IMG/VR virus record: IMGVR_UViG_3300008448_000060
Location: 5,503 to 69,502 of that record
DNA: 64,000 nt
Reading direction: 5' to 3' (one strand)
Origin: a virus
Part shown: one piece after another, positions 5,401 through 63,394 of the stretch
How positions within the stretch are numbered: the first letter of the stretch is position 1
Layout of the letters: each line of letters begins with the position of its first letter
Made by a program: the position numbers and the translations under genes
The notes under the pieces: generated by a model
Seen by the model: only the letters and a program-made list of their open reading frames with translations
Databases searched by the model: none
What the model was told of the DNA's origin: nothing

Positions 5401-6060
5401 ATGAGATTTAAATCGAGTGATGAATGGGATTGGGAAATAGTTTTTAGTAATCGTAAAGATAATTTAGTCCTTCAAAAAGCAACAGGTTTTAAAGATAAAG
5501 AAGGATGGATTGGTATTCCAAACATAGAACTATGTACTCTCACAGTTTTAAAAGAGGGATTAGTTTCAATTCGTGATTGGGACACAAAACAAGATTTAGG
5601 AGTAATGGGACCAAACTTTAGATTCCATTATTCTAATATTATGAAAGGATATGGTGATCGAAAAGATTATTTCGGTAATTCACTTCCTTCAGATGAAGAA
5701 ATACTCAAAACAGCGAGTAAATCTCACGTAAGATTAAAGACTGTATCTGAAAAAAGTATATTTTATTGTGTTTCAGATCCACTCGATAAAGTAATATGGG
5801 ATGGTTATTCAAATATATTGAATAATACACCAGAAATTTTTAAAATAAACAAAAATACATCTTTTTATAGATTTATCTCATTAGATGATAATATAAATAT
5901 AGATGGTAAAACAATTGAAAAATATCGTCCTATTGGTTTGGACATCTATGATAAGAATATAACCTTTACTGGAAAAGGTATGTACTTAATTATAGCACCT
6001 ATTGGTATATACAATAAGAGTGATAATTTAAACCCACGATATGTAATAACTGATAATTAA
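5401..6060 (+). CDS. Hypothetical protein
   Basis: 219 aa ORF filling the gap between structural genes; no recognisable motif. Confidence 0.5.
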   Translation: MRFKSSDEWDWEIVFSNRKDNLVLQKATGFKDKEGWIGIPNIELCTLTVLKEGLVSIRDWDTKQDLGVMGPNFRFHYSNIMKGYGDRKDYFGNSLPSDEEILKTASKSHVRLKTVSEKSIFYCVSDPLDKVIWDGYSNILNNTPEIFKINKNTSFYRFISLDDNINIDGKTIEKYRPIGLDIYDKNITFTGKGMYLIIAPIGIYNKSDNLNPRYVITDN

Positions 6061-29837: not shown

Positions 29838-31430
29838 ATGAAAATCGAAGAAACAATCGCAAAGCTGTTAGCTGAAGCGAAGAAAGCTAAAACTCTTTTA
29901 TCTGAACAAGATAAAGAGGGTAGTGCTTATGCTATTGGTATGGCAAAAGCAAAAGAAATTACAGGTGATGAACCACCTCTTGAAAAAGAAACAATTAAAA
30001 AAGCACACGAAATTGCTAAAGGTATTCTTAAGAAAGAAGAAATCAGTCCATTCACAGGTCAAGCATTAAAAACTGAAGAAACTGAAGAAGAAAAGAAAAA
30101 AAGAGAAGAAGAAGAAAAGGCAAAAGCAGAAGCAGAAAAAGCATCTACTAAATCTGAATCAGAAGTGGCTCCTAACACAGATGATAAGAAAAAAGAAGAT
30201 GAAAAAGCTAAAGAAAAAGAAATCGTAAAAGAAACAGAAATGACTGACGACGAAAAGAAAAAAGCTGAAGACGAAGCAAAAGCTAAAGCTGAAAAAGAAA
30301 AAGCTGACGCAGTTAAAGAACAAGAATTAACAGATAAACAAAAAACTTTACCACCAGAATTGCAAAAAGCAATTAAGGATAAAGAAGAAAAGAAAGATGC
30401 TGTTAAAGAAGAAACTGAAGAAGAAAAAGCTAAAAGAGAAGCTGAAGAAAAAGCTAAAGCTGAAAAAGAAAAAGCTGAAGTAAAAGCAGTATCTGAGTCT
30501 GAAGACGAAAAAGAAGACGAATCTGAAGATGATGAGTCTGAAGAAGAAGATGATGATGAAGAAGAAAAAGAAATGAAATCTGAGTCTGAATCTGAAGATG
30601 ATGAAGAAAAAATTAAAGAAAAAAATGCTAAAAAACCAGATGAAGTGAAAATGAACGAAAAAACTAATGAATCAATTAAAGTAGATGTATCTGCTGATGT
30701 TGATGCATTATTAAAAGGTGAAACACTTTCTGAAGAGTTTAAAGCAAAAGCAAAAGTAATATTCGAAAACGTAGTAATTAATAGAGTAAAAGATGAAATT
30801 ACTCGTGTTTCAAATGAATTGAGAACTGAAAATGTTAAAAACATGGCAGTTATCAAAGAGAGCCTGATTGAAAAAGTTGATGGATATCTCAGCTATGTAG
30901 TTGAGCAGTGGGTCTTACAAAATGAAATCGCTCTTGAATCAGGTATTAAGACTGAAATACTTGAAGACTTTGTAAGTGGTTTAAGAAATTTATTCGAAGA
31001 CCATTACATTGAAGTACCAAATGAAAGATTTGATGTACTTTCTGATCTTCAAGATCAACTTAATACTACCAAGAAAAAACTTGATGAAGCAACAGCTGAA
31101 AATGCTAAAATTTCAAAAGCATTTAGTGATTTACGAAAAAATGAAATCATAACAGCAGCTTCAAAAGATCTAGTGTCAACAGATGCAGAAAAACTTAAAT
31201 CATTAGCTGAAGAGCTAACGTTTGAAGATGATGCGTCTTTTGAGAGAAAAGTACAGACAATAAGAGATAATTATTTCTCAGCAGTGTCTGCGACTCAAAA
31301 TTCTACTAAAACAATAGTAGATACAATAGTGACTGATGAGCCAATCGTTATTAACGAGTCAGTTAAAATAACTGACGTAAAAATAGCTGCATATGCAGAC
31401 CTATTAAATCGCTCAAAGAAACAAATTTAA
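29838..31430 (+). CDS. gp22: Prohead scaffold gp22 with long E/K-rich N-terminal region
   Basis: LSEEFK.KA..IFE, KVDGYLSYVVEQW, LRNLFEDHYIEVP; lies between gp21 and gp23. Confidence 0.9.
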   Translation: MKIEETIAKLLAEAKKAKTLLSEQDKEGSAYAIGMAKAKEITGDEPPLEKETIKKAHEIAKGILKKEEISPFTGQALKTEETEEEKKKREEEEKAKAEAEKASTKSESEVAPNTDDKKKEDEKAKEKEIVKETEMTDDEKKKAEDEAKAKAEKEKADAVKEQELTDKQKTLPPELQKAIKDKEEKKDAVKEETEEEKAKREAEEKAKAEKEKAEVKAVSESEDEKEDESEDDESEEEDDDEEEKEMKSESESEDDEEKIKEKNAKKPDEVKMNEKTNESIKVDVSADVDALLKGETLSEEFKAKAKVIFENVVINRVKDEITRVSNELRTENVKNMAVIKESLIEKVDGYLSYVVEQWVLQNEIALESGIKTEILEDFVSGLRNLFEDHYIEVPNERFDVLSDLQDQLNTTKKKLDEATAENAKISKAFSDLRKNEIITAASKDLVSTDAEKLKSLAEELTFEDDASFERKVQTIRDNYFSAVSATQNSTKTIVDTIVTDEPIVINESVKITDVKIAAYADLLNRSKKQI

Positions 31431-31454
31431 TTAACAATAATAAGGGAGAATAAC

Positions 31455-32726
31455 ATGGCAGATCGTAAAGATCTTTTAAAAAAATGGGCTCCAGTATTAG
31501 ATCACGCAGGTGTAGCACCTATTAAAGATGCTTACCGAAAAGAAGTGACAGCTGTTCTATTAGAGAACCAAGAACGTTCTATTAATGAAGAAAAGCAAGC
31601 ACTTTTTGAAGCAACTCACGCGAATGCAGCTGGTGCTTTACCAGATACTTCAGGAGTAGCTAAATTTGATCCAGTATTGATCTCATTAGTACGTCGTGCA
31701 ATTCCACAAATGATCGCTTATGACGTTTGCGGAGTACAGCCGATGACACAACCAACTGGCTTAATATTCGCTATGAAAAGCAGATATACAGCACAGAATG
31801 GAACAGAAGCTTTATTTAACGAAGCTGATTCAGACTTCGGTGGTACAGGTACACATGCTGGTTCAAATCCAGTAAGTGGTGCTTATACAACTGGTTCTGG
31901 ATTATCAACAACTGATGCTGAAGGATTAGGCGATTCAGGAACGTTCAATCAAATGGCGTTTTCAATCGAGAAAACTTCAGTGACTGCGAAAACTCGTGCT
32001 TTAAAAGCTGAGTACACAGTTGAATTAGCACAAGATCTAAAATCAGTTCATGGTTTAGATGCTGAAAGTGAATTGTCAAATATCCTATCTACTGAAATCC
32101 TAGCGGAAATCAATAGAGAAGTTATTCGTACAATTTATGGAGTAGCTAAAACAGGAGCACAAGTAGGTACAGCAGCAGCTGGTACTTTTGATCTTGATGT
32201 AGATTCAAATGGAAGATGGTCAGTTGAGAAGTTCAAAGGGTTATTATTCCAAGTAGAGAGAGAAGCAAATGCGATCGCTCAACAAACTCGTAGAGGAAAA
32301 GGTAATTTCATTATTGCTTCTTCTGATGTAGCGAGTGCGTTAGCAATGTCAGGTGCTTTGGACTATGCTCCAGCTCTTTCAACTAATCTAAATGTAGACG
32401 AAGCTTCTACAACTTTTGCTGGTGTCCTTAATGGTCGCTACAAAGTGTTTGTAGATCCATATTCTGCTAACTCAGCTTCAACTCAGCTGTTATTAGTAGG
32501 ATATAAAGGTAGTTCAGCATTTGATGCTGGAATATTCTATTGCCCATACGTACCATTACAATTAGTACGTGCAGTAGATCCTTCTACATTCCAACCTAAG
32601 ATCGCGTTCAAAACAAGATACGGAATGGTGTCAAACCCATTTGTACAACTTGATGGTAATAACACGAACTTACAAGCAGCTTCTAACTACTACTACAGAA
32701 AAGTTGCAATTACAAATTTAATGTAA
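31455..32726 (+). CDS. gp23: Major capsid protein gp23
   Basis: LLENQE, DPVLISLVRRA, GVQPMTQPTGLIFAM, RALKAEYTVELAQDLK, FYCPYVPL, FKTRYG. Confidence 0.98.
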   Translation: MADRKDLLKKWAPVLDHAGVAPIKDAYRKEVTAVLLENQERSINEEKQALFEATHANAAGALPDTSGVAKFDPVLISLVRRAIPQMIAYDVCGVQPMTQPTGLIFAMKSRYTAQNGTEALFNEADSDFGGTGTHAGSNPVSGAYTTGSGLSTTDAEGLGDSGTFNQMAFSIEKTSVTAKTRALKAEYTVELAQDLKSVHGLDAESELSNILSTEILAEINREVIRTIYGVAKTGAQVGTAAAGTFDLDVDSNGRWSVEKFKGLLFQVEREANAIAQQTRRGKGNFIIASSDVASALAMSGALDYAPALSTNLNVDEASTTFAGVLNGRYKVFVDPYSANSASTQLLLVGYKGSSAFDAGIFYCPYVPLQLVRAVDPSTFQPKIAFKTRYGMVSNPFVQLDGNNTNLQAASNYYYRKVAITNLM

Positions 32727-56930: not shown

Positions 56931-57098
56931 ATGAAAACCTTAAAAGAATTAAAAATAGAATTAAAAGAACTTCAAAAAGAACACGAGTTTGAATCAACCA
57001 ATTTTCTAAAAAACAATTATAATCTTAAAAAAATAGAAGAAGATATAGTTGAATTACAAGACACAATCAATAAAAGGGAGAAATATACAAATGCCTGA
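56931..57098 (+). CDS. Small coiled-coil hypothetical protein
   Basis: From ATG 56931 (MKTLKELKIELKELQKE...); the track start overlaps the promoter. Confidence 0.5.
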   Translation: MKTLKELKIELKELQKEHEFESTNFLKNNYNLKKIEEDIVELQDTINKREKYTNA

Positions 57099-58188
57099 TT
57101 TTTTAAAAGACGTAATAAAAGATATTAATAACGAATATGCTGGTACAGCTGATGGTGATTTAGTAGGAGATTCTACATCATTTGTAGATACTGGATCTTA
57201 TATATTCAATGCTTTATTATCTGGTAATATCTATGATGGATTGCCAGCAAACAAAATTACTGCATTAGCAGGAGAACCATCAAGTGGAAAAACATTCTTC
57301 ACATTAGGAATTTGTAAAACATTTCAACAATTAGGAAAACAAGCAGGCATTATATACTTTGAAACAGAGGGTGCTATTACTAAAGACATGCTTGCTGAAA
57401 GAGGAATAGATCCTAAAAGATTTGTATTAATACCTGTATCGACTGTACAAGAATTTAGAAATCAAGCTACAAAAATTTGTGACAATGTTGACAAAGTTCC
57501 ATTAGAAGCAAGACATCCTATTTTGATTGTATTAGATTCTCTTGGCAATCTTTCAACTGAAAAAGAAGTGAAAGATATTATTGAAGGAAATGATACTCGT
57601 GATATGACAAGAGCACAATTAATTCGTGGTGCTTTTAGAGTACTTGCTTTAAGATTATCTAAATTACAAATTCCTATGATTGTGACAAATCACACATATG
57701 ATGTAATTGGTGCTTATGTACCAACAAAAGAAATGGGTGGTGGATCTGGCTTAAAATATGCTGCATCAACAATCGTATATTTAAGTAAATCAAAAGACAA
57801 AGACTCTGATAAAAATATAATTGGTAATATCATAAAAGCTACATTACAAAAATCTAGATTTACAAGAGAATTTTTGAAAGCTGAAATAAAACTTTCATAT
57901 GAAACAGGTCTTGATAGATATTATGGATTAATTGACGTTGCAGTTGATGCTGGTATATGGAAAGATGAGGGTGGCAGAATTGATGTTGGTGGAACTAAAG
58001 TATTTGGTAAAGCCATTAAAGAAAACCCTGAGAAATATTTTACAAAAGAAGTATTAGATAAAATAAATGAATATACTCAAAAAGCATTTAGATATGGTTC
58101 TACTATCGAACTATCAGATAAGGTGAGTGAAATACAACCAGAAGACAAAAAAGATGGTGGACGAAAAACAAAATCAAAATCCGAATAA
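57091..58188 (+). CDS. uvsX: RecA-like recombinase UvsX
   Basis: DTGSY.FNAL.SG, AGEPSSGKTF, LDSLG.L, TNHTY, MGGGSGLKYAAS; start at ATG 57091 with GGGAG RBS. Confidence 0.95.
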   Translation: MPDFLKDVIKDINNEYAGTADGDLVGDSTSFVDTGSYIFNALLSGNIYDGLPANKITALAGEPSSGKTFFTLGICKTFQQLGKQAGIIYFETEGAITKDMLAERGIDPKRFVLIPVSTVQEFRNQATKICDNVDKVPLEARHPILIVLDSLGNLSTEKEVKDIIEGNDTRDMTRAQLIRGAFRVLALRLSKLQIPMIVTNHTYDVIGAYVPTKEMGGGSGLKYAASTIVYLSKSKDKDSDKNIIGNIIKATLQKSRFTREFLKAEIKLSYETGLDRYYGLIDVAVDAGIWKDEGGRIDVGGTKVFGKAIKENPEKYFTKEVLDKINEYTQKAFRYGSTIELSDKVSEIQPEDKKDGGRKTKSKSE

Positions 58189-58666
58189 ATCGGAAATTCC
58201 AGCTACAAGGGAAAATTTATTCCCTTTTATTGATCCCAATTCATATGAATCTAAAGAAGCATATGAAGCAGCAAGGGATGAATATCTTAAATCTAAACCA
58301 GTAAGAGTACCACCATATGAAACTTTAGAAACTAAAGGTAAATATGGTTCAAATCATATTAAATTCCAAAATGGAATACTTGAAAATGTAGTTGTTTCAT
58401 TTGGCAAAGTATCATTTGAAAATCAAACAGATGGTAATATTAAATTATTCTACGAATATGATGCTAATGTAGAAAAATCATTACACCAATTTAATGTAGA
58501 TATACCAGAAAGCAAACAATTACTTGAGAGACACTTAGGTGATTTTCTTATGGCTTGTATAGAAGAACAAGTAAGAAATAAAACCATTTTATTCAAAGGT
58601 GGTAAAGAAGAAATGGAAGCATATACAAAAACTAAAACTGATGAGAATAGAAACAACAATACTTAA
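58154..58666 (+). CDS. Hypothetical protein in the gp40 position
   Basis: Between uvsX and gp41; V.FGKV.F...L.YEY...LGD.L pattern resembles gp40-like proteins. Confidence 0.5.
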   Translation: MVDEKQNQNPNKSEIPATRENLFPFIDPNSYESKEAYEAARDEYLKSKPVRVPPYETLETKGKYGSNHIKFQNGILENVVVSFGKVSFENQTDGNIKLFYEYDANVEKSLHQFNVDIPESKQLLERHLGDFLMACIEEQVRNKTILFKGGKEEMEAYTKTKTDENRNNNT

Positions 58667-60044
58667 AAATTTACTTCACGATGAAGATTATGCTCGTAAA
58701 GTTGTACCACATTTACGTGAAGAATATTTTCAAGATAAAATTGAAAGAGCAATTGCTAGTCAAATACTAAAGTTTTTTACTAAATTTAATAAACCAGCTA
58801 CAGTTGAAGTTATTGATATTGAACTTGGTAATGATAAAACTTTATTTGAAACTGACTATCAACAAGCACAAGCTTATACTAAAGAATTAAAGAATAAAGA
58901 AGACATAAATTCTAAATGGTTAGTTGATGCTACTGAGAAATTTTGTAAAGATAAAGCTGTCTATAATTCTATTATGGATAGTATTAAAATTATAGATGGT
59001 CGTGATAAAGTAAGAAAACAAGATAGTATTCCTTCTTTATTATCTGATGCACTTGCAGTTTCTTTCGATAAATCAGTCGGTCATGATTATCTCGAAAATG
59101 CTGATGATCGTTTTGATTTTTATAAACGCACAGAAGAAAAAATACCATTTGATATAGACTTATTTAATACAATTACACGTGGTGGTGTAAGCAATAAAAC
59201 TTTAAATGTTGCCTTAGCAGGAACAGGAGTTGGTAAATCTTTATTCTTATGTCATTTTGCGTCAGCAAATTTAATGAACAATCTTAATGTACTCTATATA
59301 ACTTTAGAGATGTCTGAAGAAAAAATTGCTGAACGTATTGATGCGAACTTATTAAATGTCACTATGGATGAGTTAAAAATCCTAGAGAAAATAGATTTTA
59401 CTTTACGTGTTGATAGAGTGAAAGAAAAAACTAAAGGAAAACTTGTTATAAAAGAATTTCCTACAGCAACAGCCCACGTTGGTCATTTTAGAGCATTACT
59501 TGATGAACTAAAAATGAAAAAAGACTTTAAACCAGATATCATTTACATAGATTATTTAAATTTATGTGTTTCTGCTAGATTAAAATATGGTGGAAATAAT
59601 AATTCTTATACAATTATTAAAAGTATAGCAGAAGAATTAAGAGGACTAGCAGTACAATATGATTTACCTATAATGACTGCTACTCAAACAACAAGACAAG
59701 GATATACTTCTTCTGATTTAGGATTAGAAGATACTTCTGAGTCATTTGGTCTTCCAGCAACAGCTGACTTTATGTTTGCGATTATTGCTACTGAAGATAT
59801 GATTAAAGAAGGAATAGCAAGTGTGAAACAATTAAAGAATCGTTATAACGATCCTAATTACTATAAAAGATTTGTCGTTGGTGTTGAAAGAAATAAGATG
59901 AAAGTCTATAATCTTGAAACAGAACATATGAAAAGACATATGGCACTAGCTGACGCAGGAGATTCTACACCTGTATTTGATAAAGGAAGTATAGGTGAAA
60001 GAATAAAGGCAGAAACAACATCATCGTTTAAATTCGATGAATAA
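58641..60044 (+). CDS. gp41: Replicative helicase gp41
   Basis: ALAGTGVGKSLF, YITLEMSEE.IAERIDAN, IDYLN, ATQTTR.G, SESFGLPATAD, KQLKNRY. Confidence 0.96.
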   Translation: MRIETTILKNLLHDEDYARKVVPHLREEYFQDKIERAIASQILKFFTKFNKPATVEVIDIELGNDKTLFETDYQQAQAYTKELKNKEDINSKWLVDATEKFCKDKAVYNSIMDSIKIIDGRDKVRKQDSIPSLLSDALAVSFDKSVGHDYLENADDRFDFYKRTEEKIPFDIDLFNTITRGGVSNKTLNVALAGTGVGKSLFLCHFASANLMNNLNVLYITLEMSEEKIAERIDANLLNVTMDELKILEKIDFTLRVDRVKEKTKGKLVIKEFPTATAHVGHFRALLDELKMKKDFKPDIIYIDYLNLCVSARLKYGGNNNSYTIIKSIAEELRGLAVQYDLPIMTATQTTRQGYTSSDLGLEDTSESFGLPATADFMFAIIATEDMIKEGIASVKQLKNRYNDPNYYKRFVVGVERNKMKVYNLETEHMKRHMALADAGDSTPVFDKGSIGERIKAETTSSFKFDE

Positions 60045-60059
60045 CATAAAGGAAAAAAG

Positions 60060-61358
60060 ATGACAACAAAAGTGATAACCGCAGCAACTAAGATTGATTG
60101 TGAACATTTGCTTGCGACTTTTGTAGATCATTCACACTATGACACTTTGGTGGAATATGATTGTGATTTCTATGCTCCATCTGTTGATGGGATAAACAGC
60201 GAGAAAAACATTCTGTTTAAATTTAGAAAAAATTGGTTTACGAAAGAGCAACAAGACTTAGCATATAAAGGTCTTAGAGAAGCAGCAGTCGAAACACAAA
60301 ATCGTGGCATAGCAGCAGGACCAAAAGGTTCAAAACTTGGTGGTCGTGACTGGGTGACGGAATATCAAGAAGAAATGCTTGAAGCATTATCTAAGTATGA
60401 AACTACACTTGATGGTTCTAATCCTATAACAACAATCACAGAAAAATATAAAAACAAAGATAAAACAGCAGCAGGATCTAGAGGATCTGTATGGCTTAAG
60501 AATAAAGTCACTGATGAAGGATTTATCTTTGAAGAGTGGTTAAATGAAATAAAATCATTACCTCGTGATGAGATAGTTAAAGAAGCAATACGAGTGAAAA
60601 CTAAATTGACTTCAACAACTTCATACGCACAAGCAGTGTGGTCTGGTATTGCTGGATATTTTGATAGATATCCTCGTATTCCTTATGGAAGAGCAACATC
60701 TTTCACTGAAAAGAATCCTGAGAAATTTGCTATGGGATTCCCATTCTTACAAAAACTTTCAGATGGTTTTAAACAATTACTGCCTGAACGTTATGCGAAA
60801 CAAAAAGAAGCATGTGATAAAATGGATCCAAAGTTTATTATTCCAGGAACTGTATTTACTACAGCGACTGTAAATAAAACTTTTAGAACAGCAGCACATA
60901 GAGATGCTGGTGATTTAAATGAAGGATTCAGTAATCTTACAGTAGTATCAAACAATGGTAAGTACAAAGGAGGTTATCTAGTACTGCCAGAATACAGAGT
61001 TGCTGTAAATATACGTCCAGGAGATTTATTATTAATTAATAATCACGAGGGTATTCATGGAAATACTGAAATGATTGTTGAAGATCCTGAAGCAGAACGT
61101 ATTTCTTTCGTATGTTATTTCAGAGAAAAGATGCTAGAACTTGGCTCTTGGAATTATGAATTAACAAGAAAAAATTACGTCGAGGACAGACGTAGAAATA
61201 AAAACCACCCATTACAAAGAGAACTTTGGAATGGAGTTTCAGAAAATATGTGGAAAGATCAAGAATGGTATGATTATCTAACATCTAAATTAGGTAAAGA
61301 AACATTATACAAATACCATCCTGAAGCAAATAAATCTTCACTTGAAGCATTTTTTTAA
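60060..61358 (+). CDS. TET/JBP-family 2OG-Fe(II) dioxygenase (putative DNA base oxidase)
   Basis: FTT.TVN..FRTAAHRDAGD (HxD), GGYLVLPEY.VAV....GD.L....H..IHGNT (distal His), RISFVCYFRE (2OG-binding Arg). Confidence 0.85.
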   Translation: MTTKVITAATKIDCEHLLATFVDHSHYDTLVEYDCDFYAPSVDGINSEKNILFKFRKNWFTKEQQDLAYKGLREAAVETQNRGIAAGPKGSKLGGRDWVTEYQEEMLEALSKYETTLDGSNPITTITEKYKNKDKTAAGSRGSVWLKNKVTDEGFIFEEWLNEIKSLPRDEIVKEAIRVKTKLTSTTSYAQAVWSGIAGYFDRYPRIPYGRATSFTEKNPEKFAMGFPFLQKLSDGFKQLLPERYAKQKEACDKMDPKFIIPGTVFTTATVNKTFRTAAHRDAGDLNEGFSNLTVVSNNGKYKGGYLVLPEYRVAVNIRPGDLLLINNHEGIHGNTEMIVEDPEAERISFVCYFREKMLELGSWNYELTRKNYVEDRRRNKNHPLQRELWNGVSENMWKDQEWYDYLTSKLGKETLYKYHPEANKSSLEAFF

Positions 61359-61360
61359 CC

Positions 61361-62365
61361 ATGTCTCTCCATGAATTTTTAGGAGAGGAACGAGCACTAG
61401 ATTGGTATTATACTGCTAATTCTTCAAACAAGGGATTAAAACTTGGTTATCGGAGAGTATCTGGTAAAATAGGATTAACAAATAAAGAATCTGGTGTTCG
61501 TGGTGCATGGGTAGAGAAAAGAATTGCACTCTTTAAGAACTTATTTGCATCTGGTTATTCAATAATTCCTTTTTCAACACCAACAGAAGCAACAGCAGCA
61601 GATGGATTTACATCTGTCGATGAATACACAAATTGTGATATTCTTTTATTAGAATTTGGTGGAACAAATCTACAATTTTATAAAAAAGATTGGGATAAAA
61701 CAGTTGAACTAATTAAATCACATTCTGGAAAAATAATATTCATTAATGACGATCCTGACTTACCATTTCTTTGGGAATTACTACCAAATGAAAAATGGGA
61801 TAGATGGATAGTTGCAGCAAATGCGACTAATTCTGCAGAAGTATCAACAATTCTTAAATGCCCAATGGGTGTAAGAGTTGTAGATTTACCAATGGCAAAT
61901 GGAATGACGTTTGAATCTTTCTCAAATGGTAATATAGATAAAACTGTCTACATTGGAAGACCGAATGGAAGAACAAAATATTTTAAAGAATTTTTAAAGT
62001 CACCAAATCTTGAGATATCAGGAAAACCAAAAGAGTGGACTGATTTTGATGTAAATGTTATTGAAAATCCACAACAAAAAGATCGAAGAAAATTTTATAG
62101 AAATTATAAAGGTTGTTTAACTGTTTATGACAGTAAACATAAAATATCTGGATGGAGAACTGGTCGTGCTTTCCATGCACTTTATGCTGGTATTCCAGTT
62201 TGCGCACCATCAGGAAATAATGGTTTAAACTGGACATATCCTGTAGAGACTGCAGAAGATTTAACTAAATTTACATCTTTATCAGATGAAAAACGTAAAT
62301 TAATTTGGGAAAAACAAAAATCAATTATCCAAAATGAAACAAATATAGATTTAATTTTATTATGA
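61361..62365 (+). CDS. Putative GT-B glycosyltransferase (beta-glucosyltransferase-like)
   Basis: Two Rossmann-like halves; FINDDPDL, VYIGRPNGR, C-terminal GWRTGRAFHALYAGIPV; adjacent to the TET/JBP gene. Confidence 0.55.
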   Translation: MSLHEFLGEERALDWYYTANSSNKGLKLGYRRVSGKIGLTNKESGVRGAWVEKRIALFKNLFASGYSIIPFSTPTEATAADGFTSVDEYTNCDILLLEFGGTNLQFYKKDWDKTVELIKSHSGKIIFINDDPDLPFLWELLPNEKWDRWIVAANATNSAEVSTILKCPMGVRVVDLPMANGMTFESFSNGNIDKTVYIGRPNGRTKYFKEFLKSPNLEISGKPKEWTDFDVNVIENPQQKDRRKFYRNYKGCLTVYDSKHKISGWRTGRAFHALYAGIPVCAPSGNNGLNWTYPVETAEDLTKFTSLSDEKRKLIWEKQKSIIQNETNIDLILL

Positions 62366-62811
62366 TAGTATCTTATGATATGGATGGTGTTCTTGCACTT
62401 AACCCACCACCAAATACAAAAAAATGGGGGCATATGAATGGGGTTGAAAGAAGAGCAAGAAAAGAATTTCTATATGATTGGTATAATTCTGCTGAACCAT
62501 TATATAAACCGACTGAAGATAAATTTCATGTAATTTCAGCAAGGAAAAAAGACCAACGTACATGGGAAATAACGATGAATTGGTTAAATAAATACTTTCC
62601 TGGAAGAGTAATTTCATTATCTTTATTAAATGTGCCAAGAACTGTAAATAATGTAGTAAAGTTTAAGAATGATGCAATCAATTCAATTGGTGCAGTTGAA
62701 CATACTGAAGATAATAAAAAAGTATTAAGAGGTATTTCAAAAATTAATAAAAATATTAAGTTATATTTTTGGGAAAAGGATATGGTAAATAAGGAAGTAT
62801 TTAATGGCTAA
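62362..62811 (+). CDS. HAD-superfamily phosphatase
   Basis: Motif I YDMDGVL, motif II ISAR, motif III K, motif IV EDN. Confidence 0.75.
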   Translation: MIVSYDMDGVLALNPPPNTKKWGHMNGVERRARKEFLYDWYNSAEPLYKPTEDKFHVISARKKDQRTWEITMNWLNKYFPGRVISLSLLNVPRTVNNVVKFKNDAINSIGAVEHTEDNKKVLRGISKINKNIKLYFWEKDMVNKEVFNG

Positions 62812-63394
62812 AAATTATTTTCATTTAAAACTTCCTTTCAAAGACCCTTTAAACGAAGATGGCATGAAGTGGTTTTTTGATTTACCACCTTGTTTTATAC
62901 AAGTACCAAAAAAATATTTTAATGAAGAAGCTGTTAAATTTTTTGAATCTAAAAAATTATTATATTGGGATGCTGAAGTTTTTTCATTTCCTGCAAACTA
63001 TACAATGGAAATACACGTTGATGCTGTTGAGTTTACAGAAAAATGTAAATTAAATTGGGCTTATAGTAAGGGAGAACATCATAATCTTTGGTTTAAACCA
63101 AAACCATCTTGGATACCAAGAGCAACTGACGGAGAACAAGATGATGGACGTTATGATGATTATAGCTACACTTTCGAAGAAAATGAAGTTGAAGAAGTGG
63201 AAAGAACTACTGTAAGAACACCAACTTGTATAGTTAGTGGTCAGCCACATAGTGTACGAACATATAGTGAACCAAGAAAAGCAATTTCTGTCACTTTATA
63301 TCCACACGGAACTAATCCACCAGCTTTACCAAAAGATTGGGGAATACCAATATCAAATATGAGAGAGGTTTTAAATGATTACATCATTGATTAG
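62804..63394 (+). CDS. Putative double-stranded beta-helix (cupin/2OG-Fe(II)) oxygenase
   Basis: IHVD ... PHSV ... RKAISV (HxD...H...RxxxS pattern). Confidence 0.5.
   Translation: MAKNYFHLKLPFKDPLNEDGMKWFFDLPPCFIQVPKKYFNEEAVKFFESKKLLYWDAEVFSFPANYTMEIHVDAVEFTEKCKLNWAYSKGEHHNLWFKPKPSWIPRATDGEQDDGRYDDYSYTFEENEVEEVERTTVRTPTCIVSGQPHSVRTYSEPRKAISVTLYPHGTNPPALPKDWGIPISNMREVLNDYIID

Follow-up and report, generated by a model that had tools for sequence, protein, structure and literature searches.

The window analysed here, a stretch of 64,000 nucleotides spanning positions 5,503 to 69,502 of the IMG/VR virus record IMGVR_UViG_3300008448_000060, carries close to its end four open reading frames (ORFs) that follow directly on the gene for a gp41-type replicative helicase. 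We are moderately confident that these ORFs form a cassette for the post-replicative hypermodification of thymine in a T4-like phage, and each would have its own part in it. ORF1 (60060-61358), a predicted long-form TET/JBP (5mYOX) Fe(II)/2-oxoglutarate (2OG) dioxygenase of 432 amino acids (aa), would hydroxylate the C5-methyl group of thymine in the phage DNA to form 5-hydroxymethyluracil (5hmU). ORF2 (61361-62365, 334 aa), a probable GT-B DNA glycosyltransferase, would then move a sugar from a nucleotide-sugar onto the 5hmU hydroxyl, resulting in a base-J-like glycosyl-5hmU. ORF3 (62362-62811, 149 aa), at the level of its motifs a small HAD-type phosphatase, would serve the glycosylation, either by helping to make the activated sugar donor or by dephosphorylating a transferred phosphosugar, while ORF4 (62804-63394, 196 aa) would be a lineage-specific accessory protein with an HxD...H...R pattern, paired with the dioxygenase rather than with the glycosyltransferase. 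The finished modification likely protects the phage DNA against host nucleases, and the product could be an undescribed base.

A preliminary description of the window, made from the letters of the sequence and its translations, had already proposed a post-replicative route to a glycosylated pyrimidine, and this is still the best reading. It had also placed four abutting or overlapping ORFs directly after gp41, which is indeed the arrangement found: all four lie on the + strand, ORF1 and ORF2 are 2 nt apart, ORF2 and ORF3 overlap by 4 nt, and ORF3 and ORF4 overlap by 8 nt. Inside the block, the + strand has no terminator-like site, and promoter-like matches in the region number 32 against the 40.9 expected from shuffling, which is no excess.

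The dioxygenase and its probable substrate

Against the Pfam model Tet_JBP (PF12851), ORF1 scores 83.8 bits at a cut-off of 34.9 (E 1e-23), with residues 197-356 covering positions 2-164 of the 164 in the profile (E 4.3e-26 in a record-level search), and its full length matches phrog_24024 (2.2e-174). A profile of seven long forms also matches the TET2 chains 5d9y, 4nm6 and 9hxv in the PDB (5.5e-6 over 81 positions). Conservation of H280-R-D282, H333 and R347 reaches 97% or more among 62 distinct long and short homologues; from the alignment, H280, D282 and H333 are assigned as the iron triad and R347 as the 2-oxoglutarate-binding arginine, all of them intact. The sequence therefore places ORF1 among the TET/JBP (5mYOX) dioxygenases, where the preliminary description had put it on the strength of an HRD...H...R motif; this motif and those it had named in ORF3 and ORF4 are present in the translations and conserved across the respective families. 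A tblastn search of 50,697 phage records matched ORF1 in 13, six of them with at least 80% coverage, and identity to ORF1 is 55% for DLP_6, 47% for Cr30 (two records), 45% for C48C1 and 31% for S-CBWM1 (two records). Several phage records annotate the homologues as 'SNF2 DNA repair protein'. In IMG/VR, the long-form clade comprises at least 569 confirmed stretches.

Phage thymine dioxygenases of the 5mYOX family are known in two subclasses, one that depends on ParB and one that does not (O'Toole et al., PNAS 2026, PMC13229309). The ParB-dependent short enzymes yielded 5hmU from T only when ParB was co-expressed (PMC13229309). Around T-dioxygenase genes, glycosyltransferases were the commonest co-occurring domain (31%), HAD proteins were listed and C5-methyltransferases (C5-MTs) were few (PMC13229309). 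ORF1 resembles these phage enzymes in being a TET/JBP protein in a hypermodification neighbourhood with no neighbouring C5-MT. It is unlike the enzymes assayed there, which are ~290-300 aa long (PMC13229309), in its 432 aa and its lack of a ParB partner. Compared with short ParB-type forms, it has additional segments at residues 1-17, 20-56, 95-112, 153-164 and 402-432. ParB_N was not found at E <= 0.1 in G001, a complete 144,834-bp relative with an ORF2 that is 96% identical. We also surveyed the surroundings of ORF1 homologues in a reverse census of the best 80 of at least 569 loci (55-100% identical to ORF1), 72 of which have at least 1100 nt downstream. A ParB query matched none of these 72 long-form loci, and ParB was encountered only beside short or 326-aa forms of the dioxygenase.

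Which base the enzyme oxidises depends largely on what accompanies it. Neither a C5-MT nor a hydroxymethylase is found in the whole 69.5-kb record, but as the record is 39% complete, this proves little alone. In G001 and four partial relatives, PF00145, PF00303 (the ThyA family) and PF02511 (ThyX) are all missing, so that the absence noted in the preliminary description for the window extends to the full record and to a complete relative. PF00145 is likewise absent from four of four complete long-form genomes (G001, DLP_6, Cr30 and C48C1), in a search that recovered the Melnitz-2 enzyme at 2.2e-56 as a positive control. A ThyA-family gene occurs only in Cr30 among DLP_6, Cr30, C48C1 and Melnitz-2, and the Melnitz C5-MT, used as a query in the form of a partial protein, matched none of the 72 long-form loci. 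By comparison, a Cr30-type amino-acid:DNA transferase (AADT), which in Cr30 matches Pfam ADDT at 1.3e-52, is present in 46 of the 72. AADTs are known machinery of T hypermodification (PMC13229309). Given the absence of C5-MT, the coupling to AADTs and the existence of ParB-type relatives, we are fairly confident that thymine rather than 5-methylcytosine (5mC) is the substrate, and ORF1 is a probable thymine dioxygenase making 5hmU in DNA. The base-J-like T route, one option of the preliminary description, is favoured on the same grounds.

Methylophilales phage Melnitz-2 itself shows a different arrangement. Here, an annotated HhaI-type C5-MT immediately precedes a hypothetical gene of 328 aa (L125:1-1755) holding a weak TET/JBP match, 27.6% identical to ORF1 over 30% of the length. 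The two are likely a 5mC-to-5-hydroxymethylcytosine (5hmC) pair in a cultured phage, that is, the classic 5mC arrangement.

A probable glycosyltransferase and its HAD-type partner

A forward census from ORF2 covered the best 80 of 102 confirmed viral stretches, on distinct contigs and with 45-100% ORF2 identity. A TET/JBP gene stands beside ORF2 in 76 of the 80 loci; of the other four, L081, L092 and L096 have ORF2 at the locus edge, and L103 has full flanks. Of the 70 loci that extend 500 nt or more downstream, 66 have ORF3 after ORF2, the exceptions being L047, L081, L082 and L103. ORF4, on the other hand, occurs in only 13 of the 66 loci with at least 1100 nt downstream, all of them belonging to the lineage in which ORF2 identity is 80% or higher. 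The conserved unit is thus made up of the dioxygenase, ORF2 and ORF3, and the four-gene cassette of the preliminary description has to be reduced to three genes. With gp41 nearby in only 43 of the 80 loci, this trio persists in changed surroundings.

The census also brought in a second type of dioxygenase. Twelve loci have only a weakly matching dioxygenase, and two of these are cut by the locus edge; in the remaining ten, the enzyme is a short form of 266-300 aa, ~22% identical to ORF1. Against Tet_JBP, short enzymes score 6.8e-11 and 7.2e-10, and the one in L110 scores 1.7e-6, below the cut-off. By single-linkage clustering, short dioxygenases are accompanied by a 205-223-aa ParB_N protein in 12 loci, and by direct BLAST the order ParB, dioxygenase, ORF2, ORF3 is seen in 7. 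The ParB_N match reaches 29.6 bits in L110, over a cut-off of 26.3, and 25 bits in L082. Two further loci pair ParB with a 326-aa form of the dioxygenase that is 41% identical to ORF1. The idea that the 216-223-aa partner of the short enzymes was a split-off N-terminus of ORF1 was ruled out, the partner being ParB. Altogether, L110:4474-7370, L082:3423-5760 and ten other loci hold ORF2-ORF3 homologues (45-60% identity), ParB_N and a short Tet_JBP enzyme in two gene orders, and they look like the published ParB-dependent class of T-dioxygenase joined to a glycosyltransferase module.

By itself, ORF2 matches nothing in Pfam (E <= 0.1) or the PHROGs, and the tblastn search of the phage records was negative. 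Its 156 homologues, down to 38% identity, are named only 'hypothetical' or 'uncharacterized' and none has a Pfam domain, while PDB profile searches gave only interleukin-2 noise. A lead came from the language model behind the ESM Atlas, in which the nearest named clusters carry PF09198, the T4 beta-glucosyltransferase (beta-GT) family, with a score of 0.96 and 193 shared features. For a profile comparison, an alignment was assembled from eight beta-GT homologues 31-100% identical to T4 beta-GT; T4 beta-gt as a query had found only 5 close relatives among viral contigs. The hhalign comparison of the ORF2 family with this alignment has an E of 2.8e-4 over 263 collinear columns at a probability of 41%, and pairs ORF2 residues 55-328 with beta-GT residues 24-337. 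Each of the 27 controls, among them five unrelated alignment pairs and beta-GT alignments that had been reversed (one) or shuffled by column (20), has an E of at least 0.066 over at most 79 columns. Two motifs of ORF2, YIGRPNGR and TGR269, align with YGGSFRGGxR and TxR269 of beta-GT, where the arginines are, we take it, those that bind the UDP phosphates. In addition, the invariant D130-D131-P-D-L-P-F of ORF2 aligns with T99-D100-I-R-L-P-F of beta-GT, which sets D131 opposite the invariant D100, the catalytic aspartate of beta-GT (10.1101/2023.12.21.572611).

This profile match is a similarity and not proof of membership in the family. From it, ORF2 is probably a GT-B DNA glycosyltransferase distantly like T4 beta-GT, and its tight linkage to the dioxygenase, together with the beta-GT similarity, leads us to infer that it glycosylates a hydroxyl. 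The 'GT-B-like' label of the preliminary description consequently stands as far as the profile-profile match and the language-model lead go, with the protein being invisible to Pfam and the PHROGs. The TET-associated glycosyltransferase TAGT (PF20691) has no match in ORF2 at E <= 0.1 and is absent among the families matched by 60 ORF2 family members; a neighbour gene in Cr30 matches it weakly (8.5e-4). No likeness was found between ORF2 and the two ~340-aa genes downstream of the C48C1 dioxygenase.

ORF3 also escapes annotation, with no Pfam or PHROG match, no tblastn match in the phage records and an empty PDB profile search. Nevertheless, the stretch D6-M-D8-G9 is unchanged in all of 27 sequences 48-95% identical to ORF3, as are S59, K102 and E116-D117-N118, and in our own assignment of residues to motifs these residues would correspond to the four HAD motifs (DxD, S/T, K and the acidic pair). 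Among the 27 family members, phrog_415, a polynucleotide kinase, is matched by seven (best 7.6e-5) and HAD_SAK_2 by four (best 0.064). The Atlas leads for ORF3 are HAD_PNKP and NT5C (0.92-0.93), and the corresponding models, PF25109 and PF06941, match nothing in the record at E <= 10. The HAD phosphatase of the preliminary description hence retains all four of its motifs, but family matches that are only weak. A 149-aa neighbour of the Cr30 dioxygenase, the same size as ORF3, shows no likeness to it.

The part of ORF3 in the sugar step is suggested by its strict co-occurrence with ORF2 and by a published case, contig 53, in which a betaGT-like GT-B enzyme had to be combined with a cytidylyltransferase and a HAD-like enzyme to place heptose on DNA (Pyle et al., 10.1101/2023.12.21.572611). 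Unlike contig 53, the cassette described here has a stand-alone 149-aa HAD protein and no adjacent kinase or nucleotidyltransferase. In G001, a 768-aa protein with an N-terminal 'cytidyltransferase' (phrog_3041, 1.1e-61) is encoded at L024:15153-17459, with ~4.5 kb separating it from ORF4 upstream, and is found again in 19 of the 80 loci. This protein could be the supplier of the nucleotide-sugar, although this is a weak lead as the gene is non-adjacent. The gene is presumably common in marine T4-like phages.

ORF4 and exchange with amino-acid transferase cassettes

The reverse census shows how often glycosyltransferase (GT) cassettes stand behind this clade of dioxygenases. Next to the 46 loci with an AADT, ORF2 and ORF3 are each found in 11 of the 72 long-form loci and ORF4 in 10, while 15 have neither ORF2 nor an AADT. 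A beta-GT profile and the sugar genes flanking the C48C1 and DLP_6 dioxygenases matched none of the 72. The gp41-type helicase, present in 47 of them, is the conserved upstream anchor of a variable slot, which in the lineage of the window is filled with the dioxygenase, ORF2, ORF3 and ORF4. A different content is found in L131:4162-9699, where a dioxygenase 90% identical to ORF1 is followed by genes of 227, 334 and 143 aa, an AADT, a 184-aa gene and ORF4. The 334-aa gene there takes the position of ORF2 but is unrelated to it, and PDB searches with two genes of AADT cassettes found nothing. In L132:12-2429, the dioxygenase is followed by a 179-aa gene and then ORF4, and in L136:4998-10009, ORF4 lies immediately before the AADT. 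Behind a conserved dioxygenase, the slot after gp41 thus accommodates tailoring cassettes that can replace one another.

How often these cassettes were exchanged was estimated from a FastTree phylogeny in which 125 distinct dioxygenases were joined by five named enzymes and the one of Melnitz-2 served as the root. Fitch parsimony over 109 labelled leaves (21 unlabelled leaves excluded) gives 11 switches between GT and AADT, whereas 500 label shuffles averaged 35.2 and never went below 24. The modules are therefore inherited and yet have repeatedly been exchanged. The clade that contains the dioxygenase of the window (support 0.966) has 14 members, of which 12 are of the GT type and two of the AADT type.

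ORF4 travels with the dioxygenase, and ORF3 with ORF2. ORF4 is also found beside the dioxygenase in AADT-type or minimal cassettes without ORF2 (L131, L132 and L136). It is on account of this position beside a dioxygenase with no ORF2-type glycosyltransferase that a sugar-tailoring role is unlikely, which goes against the tailoring of the sugar that the preliminary description had suggested for ORF4. A deep profile search collected 378 distant relatives at E <= 0.001, ~180-200 aa long. In 74 of them, with a mean identity of 23%, the only invariant residues are those of the H71-V-D73 motif and H149, while R158 is conserved to 90% or more. Searches of Pfam, the PHROGs and the PDB found no match, nor did tblastn in the phage records, and the hhalign probability of the family is at most 0.4% against TET/JBP and against the 2OG oxygenases of P-SSM7 and Melnitz-2. 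Ten relatives that were looked up are called 'hypothetical protein' wherever they are named. The HxD...H...R pattern is the one seen at 2OG/Fe(II) sites but alone does not define a 2OG oxygenase family, and so ORF4 is possibly a metal- or 2OG-dependent enzyme; for the second oxygenase of the preliminary description, the motif is conserved but is the sole basis, with no known family matched.

Paralogues of ORF4 exist in some relatives. L131 has a second, downstream copy (L131:10070-10465), and P0198, a 227-aa protein matching the ORF4 profile at 4.2e-19, is found on long contigs of the lineage, including a 68,128-bp relative; none is present in the window. NCBI copies of ORF3, ORF4 and the ORF4-like protein (P0127, P0138, P0163 and P0345) are labelled 'bacterium' or 'Candidatus Elulimicrobium humile', and these contigs look like phage sequence that was binned into a bacterial genome.

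A bolder version of the scheme, which we consider rather unlikely, would make ORF2 and ORF3 a two-step DNA glycosylation device, in which a phosphorylated or phosphatase-dependent sugar is placed on 5hmU and the HAD enzyme finishes it to a chemically new base-J-like thymine derivative, carried in the DNA of a widespread lineage of aquatic T4-like phages. ORF4 would in that case be the founder of an undescribed metal-dependent family acting on 5hmU-DNA whichever tailoring module is present.

Competing readings, known systems and the wider locus

Several observations weigh against the proposed thymine cassette. The hhalign probability of the ORF2 match is only 41%, and is 5% when the family is compared with T4 beta-gt alone; the PF09198 model has no match in the record at E <= 10 or in any of 60 ORF2 family members, of which only two are touched by Glyco_trans_1_2. 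None of the curated HAD models reaches ORF3, and a GmhB-like identity was rejected at an hhalign probability of 0.5% against E. coli GmhB. No nucleotide-sugar synthesis gene is adjacent to the cassette. In L103 and L081, the ORF2 homologue has recombination genes (ERF and PDDEXK) for neighbours, and both loci lack a dioxygenase and a HAD gene. Methylation by the host or by a very divergent methyltransferase may yet supply 5mC. Lastly, some of the clade C1 enzymes without ParB showed no detectable activity in E. coli, either on 5mC or on T (PMC13229309).

Three other explanations compete with this reading. Were the dioxygenase to oxidise 5mC made by a host or divergent phage methyltransferase, ORF2 would glycosylate 5hmC, like the glycosyltransferases of published phage C5-MT/TET/GT clusters and like T4 beta-GT, the nearest family to ORF2. 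Phage TETs of clades A and B do act on 5mC, with TET89 having dual activity and also making 5hmU (PMC8256090), and Melnitz, the nearest cultured relative, has its C5-MT directly upstream of the weak TET-like gene. That gene, however, is the distant relative described above, and both the methyltransferase searches, with their positive control, and the prevailing coupling of the clade to AADTs, which is thymidine chemistry, speak for T; we therefore hold the 5mC route to be unlikely. Pairs of GT-B enzymes and HAD phosphatases are the usual scheme for the synthesis of compatible solutes (trehalose, sucrose phosphate), and 5hmU could accordingly be the final mark, with ORF2 and ORF3 working on a small molecule, lipid or protein, or with ORF2 being no glycosyltransferase at all. 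This would agree with the lack of a curated GT model match, the modest beta-GT probability and the two loci with ORF2 but no dioxygenase. It is less easily reconciled with a TET/JBP gene beside ORF2 in 76 of 80 loci, across two dioxygenase types and differing genome contexts, or with sister phages that fill the ORF2-ORF3 slot with a DNA-acting AADT cassette; the catalytic and phosphate-binding motifs of ORF2, as aligned, also match those of beta-GT, a DNA-acting enzyme. An oxidation-only outcome is in our view as improbable as the 5mC route.

The remaining alternative is that the four genes are mere neighbours in a variable region with no joint function, ORF1 being inactive without a partner. 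The slot behind gp41 is variable indeed, and E. coli experiments found some clade C1 enzymes without ParB to be inactive (PMC13229309). Yet the catalytic residues are kept in the 62 homologues, the trio is maintained down to 45% ORF2 identity and away from gp41, and start and stop codons overlap, which makes an unrelated assemblage very improbable.

The thymine cassette, as we propose it, has counterparts among known systems. Base J of kinetoplastids, made by JBP1/2 and JGT, follows the same two-step logic, as a TET/JBP enzyme oxidises T to 5hmU and the hydroxyl is then glycosylated. JBPs have a J-binding domain, and we know of no HAD partner in the J pathway. JGT groups with the GT-A enzymes (10.1101/2023.12.21.572611), whereas ORF2 looks like a GT-B. 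In T4, gene 42 and beta-gt likewise set a maker of hydroxymethyl-pyrimidine beside a beta-GT-type glycosyltransferase in the uvsX/gp41 replication module (gene order 42, b-gt, segA, uvsX, 40, 41), so that the T4 neighbourhood comparison drawn in the preliminary description is apt. The likely purpose, a defence against nucleases, is shared as well. The difference is that T4 hydroxymethylates the nucleotide before replication with a ThyA homologue, while the cassette described here has a dioxygenase that would act on DNA, and no ThyA-family gene was found in the record or G001. The Cr30-type AADT (PF18724) cassettes share the long-form dioxygenase clade and the slot after gp41, and differ in transferring an amino acid where a sugar would be transferred here; the two types of module replace each other.

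A further counterpart is provided by the subclass III clusters of Pyle et al. (10.1101/2023.12.21.572611), whose work mined ~25,000 contigs from IMG/VR; these clusters hold the 5mYOX-associated GT-B DNA glycosyltransferases GT53, GT66 and GT94. As here, a T4-betaGT-like GT-B is next to a 5mYOX, and in one cluster, contig 53, a HAD-like enzyme takes part. The enzymes of that study were assayed on 5hmC from a C5-MT/TET pair, in contrast to the cassette described here, which is without a C5-MT. The general scheme is therefore already published, with T-dioxygenases accompanied by GTs in one study (PMC13229309) and betaGT-like GT-B partners in the other (10.1101/2023.12.21.572611). What was demonstrated is 5hmU formation by phage T-dioxygenases in the former and GT activity on 5hmC in the latter. 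Supplements aside, neither paper reports glycosyl-5hmU from a phage dioxygenase/GT pair, and in the same literature, with the same restriction, we found no 432-aa ParB-less form, no ORF2 family with a constant HAD partner and no exchange with AADT modules.

The cassette is for this reason a compact candidate for the missing glycosyl-5hmU step, consisting of three small genes with no methyltransferase to supply. In a single genomic slot, one dioxygenase clade feeds either GT-HAD or amino-acid transferase modules, which are interchangeable. Such exchange is useful for mining and engineering DNA hypermodification, as well as for predicting which environmental phage DNA will be resistant to restriction enzymes or sequencing chemistry.

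Two unrelated phages were noticed to have a sugar gene of another kind next to genes for DNA modification. In Phage C48C1 (L003:5908-9355), the dioxygenase is followed by a 344-aa gene and then GLF, a UDP-galactopyranose mutase, and in Lactobacillus phage ATCCB (L121), a thymidylate-synthase homologue and a beta-glucosyltransferase are followed by a UDP-galactopyranose mutase. This hints at galactofuranose on DNA.

The window makes up the last 64 kb of the 69.5-kb record, for which the completeness given above is the CheckV estimate, and the record ends ~600 bp past ORF4. Every large gene is on the + strand, with a structural block first and a replication block after it. In the latter, UvsX (57049-58188) is upstream of the gp41/DnaB-type replicative helicase (58599-60044, + strand), a 481-aa ORF that matches DnaB_C at 7.8e-17 and phrog_19 at 5.6e-117. 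The uvsX-gp41 stretch shares ~67% DNA identity with the Methylophilales Melnitz phages and with Pelagibacter phage HTVC008M, which places the source among the aquatic T4-like phages, of the same kind as pelagiphages and cyanophages. A 179-aa ORF (58127-58666) separates UvsX from gp41, in the position of T4 gene 40, and has no family match in Pfam or the PHROGs. In marine T4-like phages (P-SSM7, Melnitz-2), this slot holds a 2OG-Fe(II) oxygenase, and the ORF was considered as a counterpart of the one in Melnitz-2; BLASTP found no similarity between them. At L126:3665-4982, a locus with a dioxygenase 100% identical to ORF1, gp41 is broken into two ORFs, 298 and 123 aa long, although the sequence is nearly identical otherwise; the break is the result of a frameshift, an insertion or an assembly error. 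Far from the cassette, positions 30001-32000 of the window have an AT skew of 0.312, far above the 0.01-0.20 of the other 2-kb windows, and a 530-aa ORF is located there at 29838-31430.

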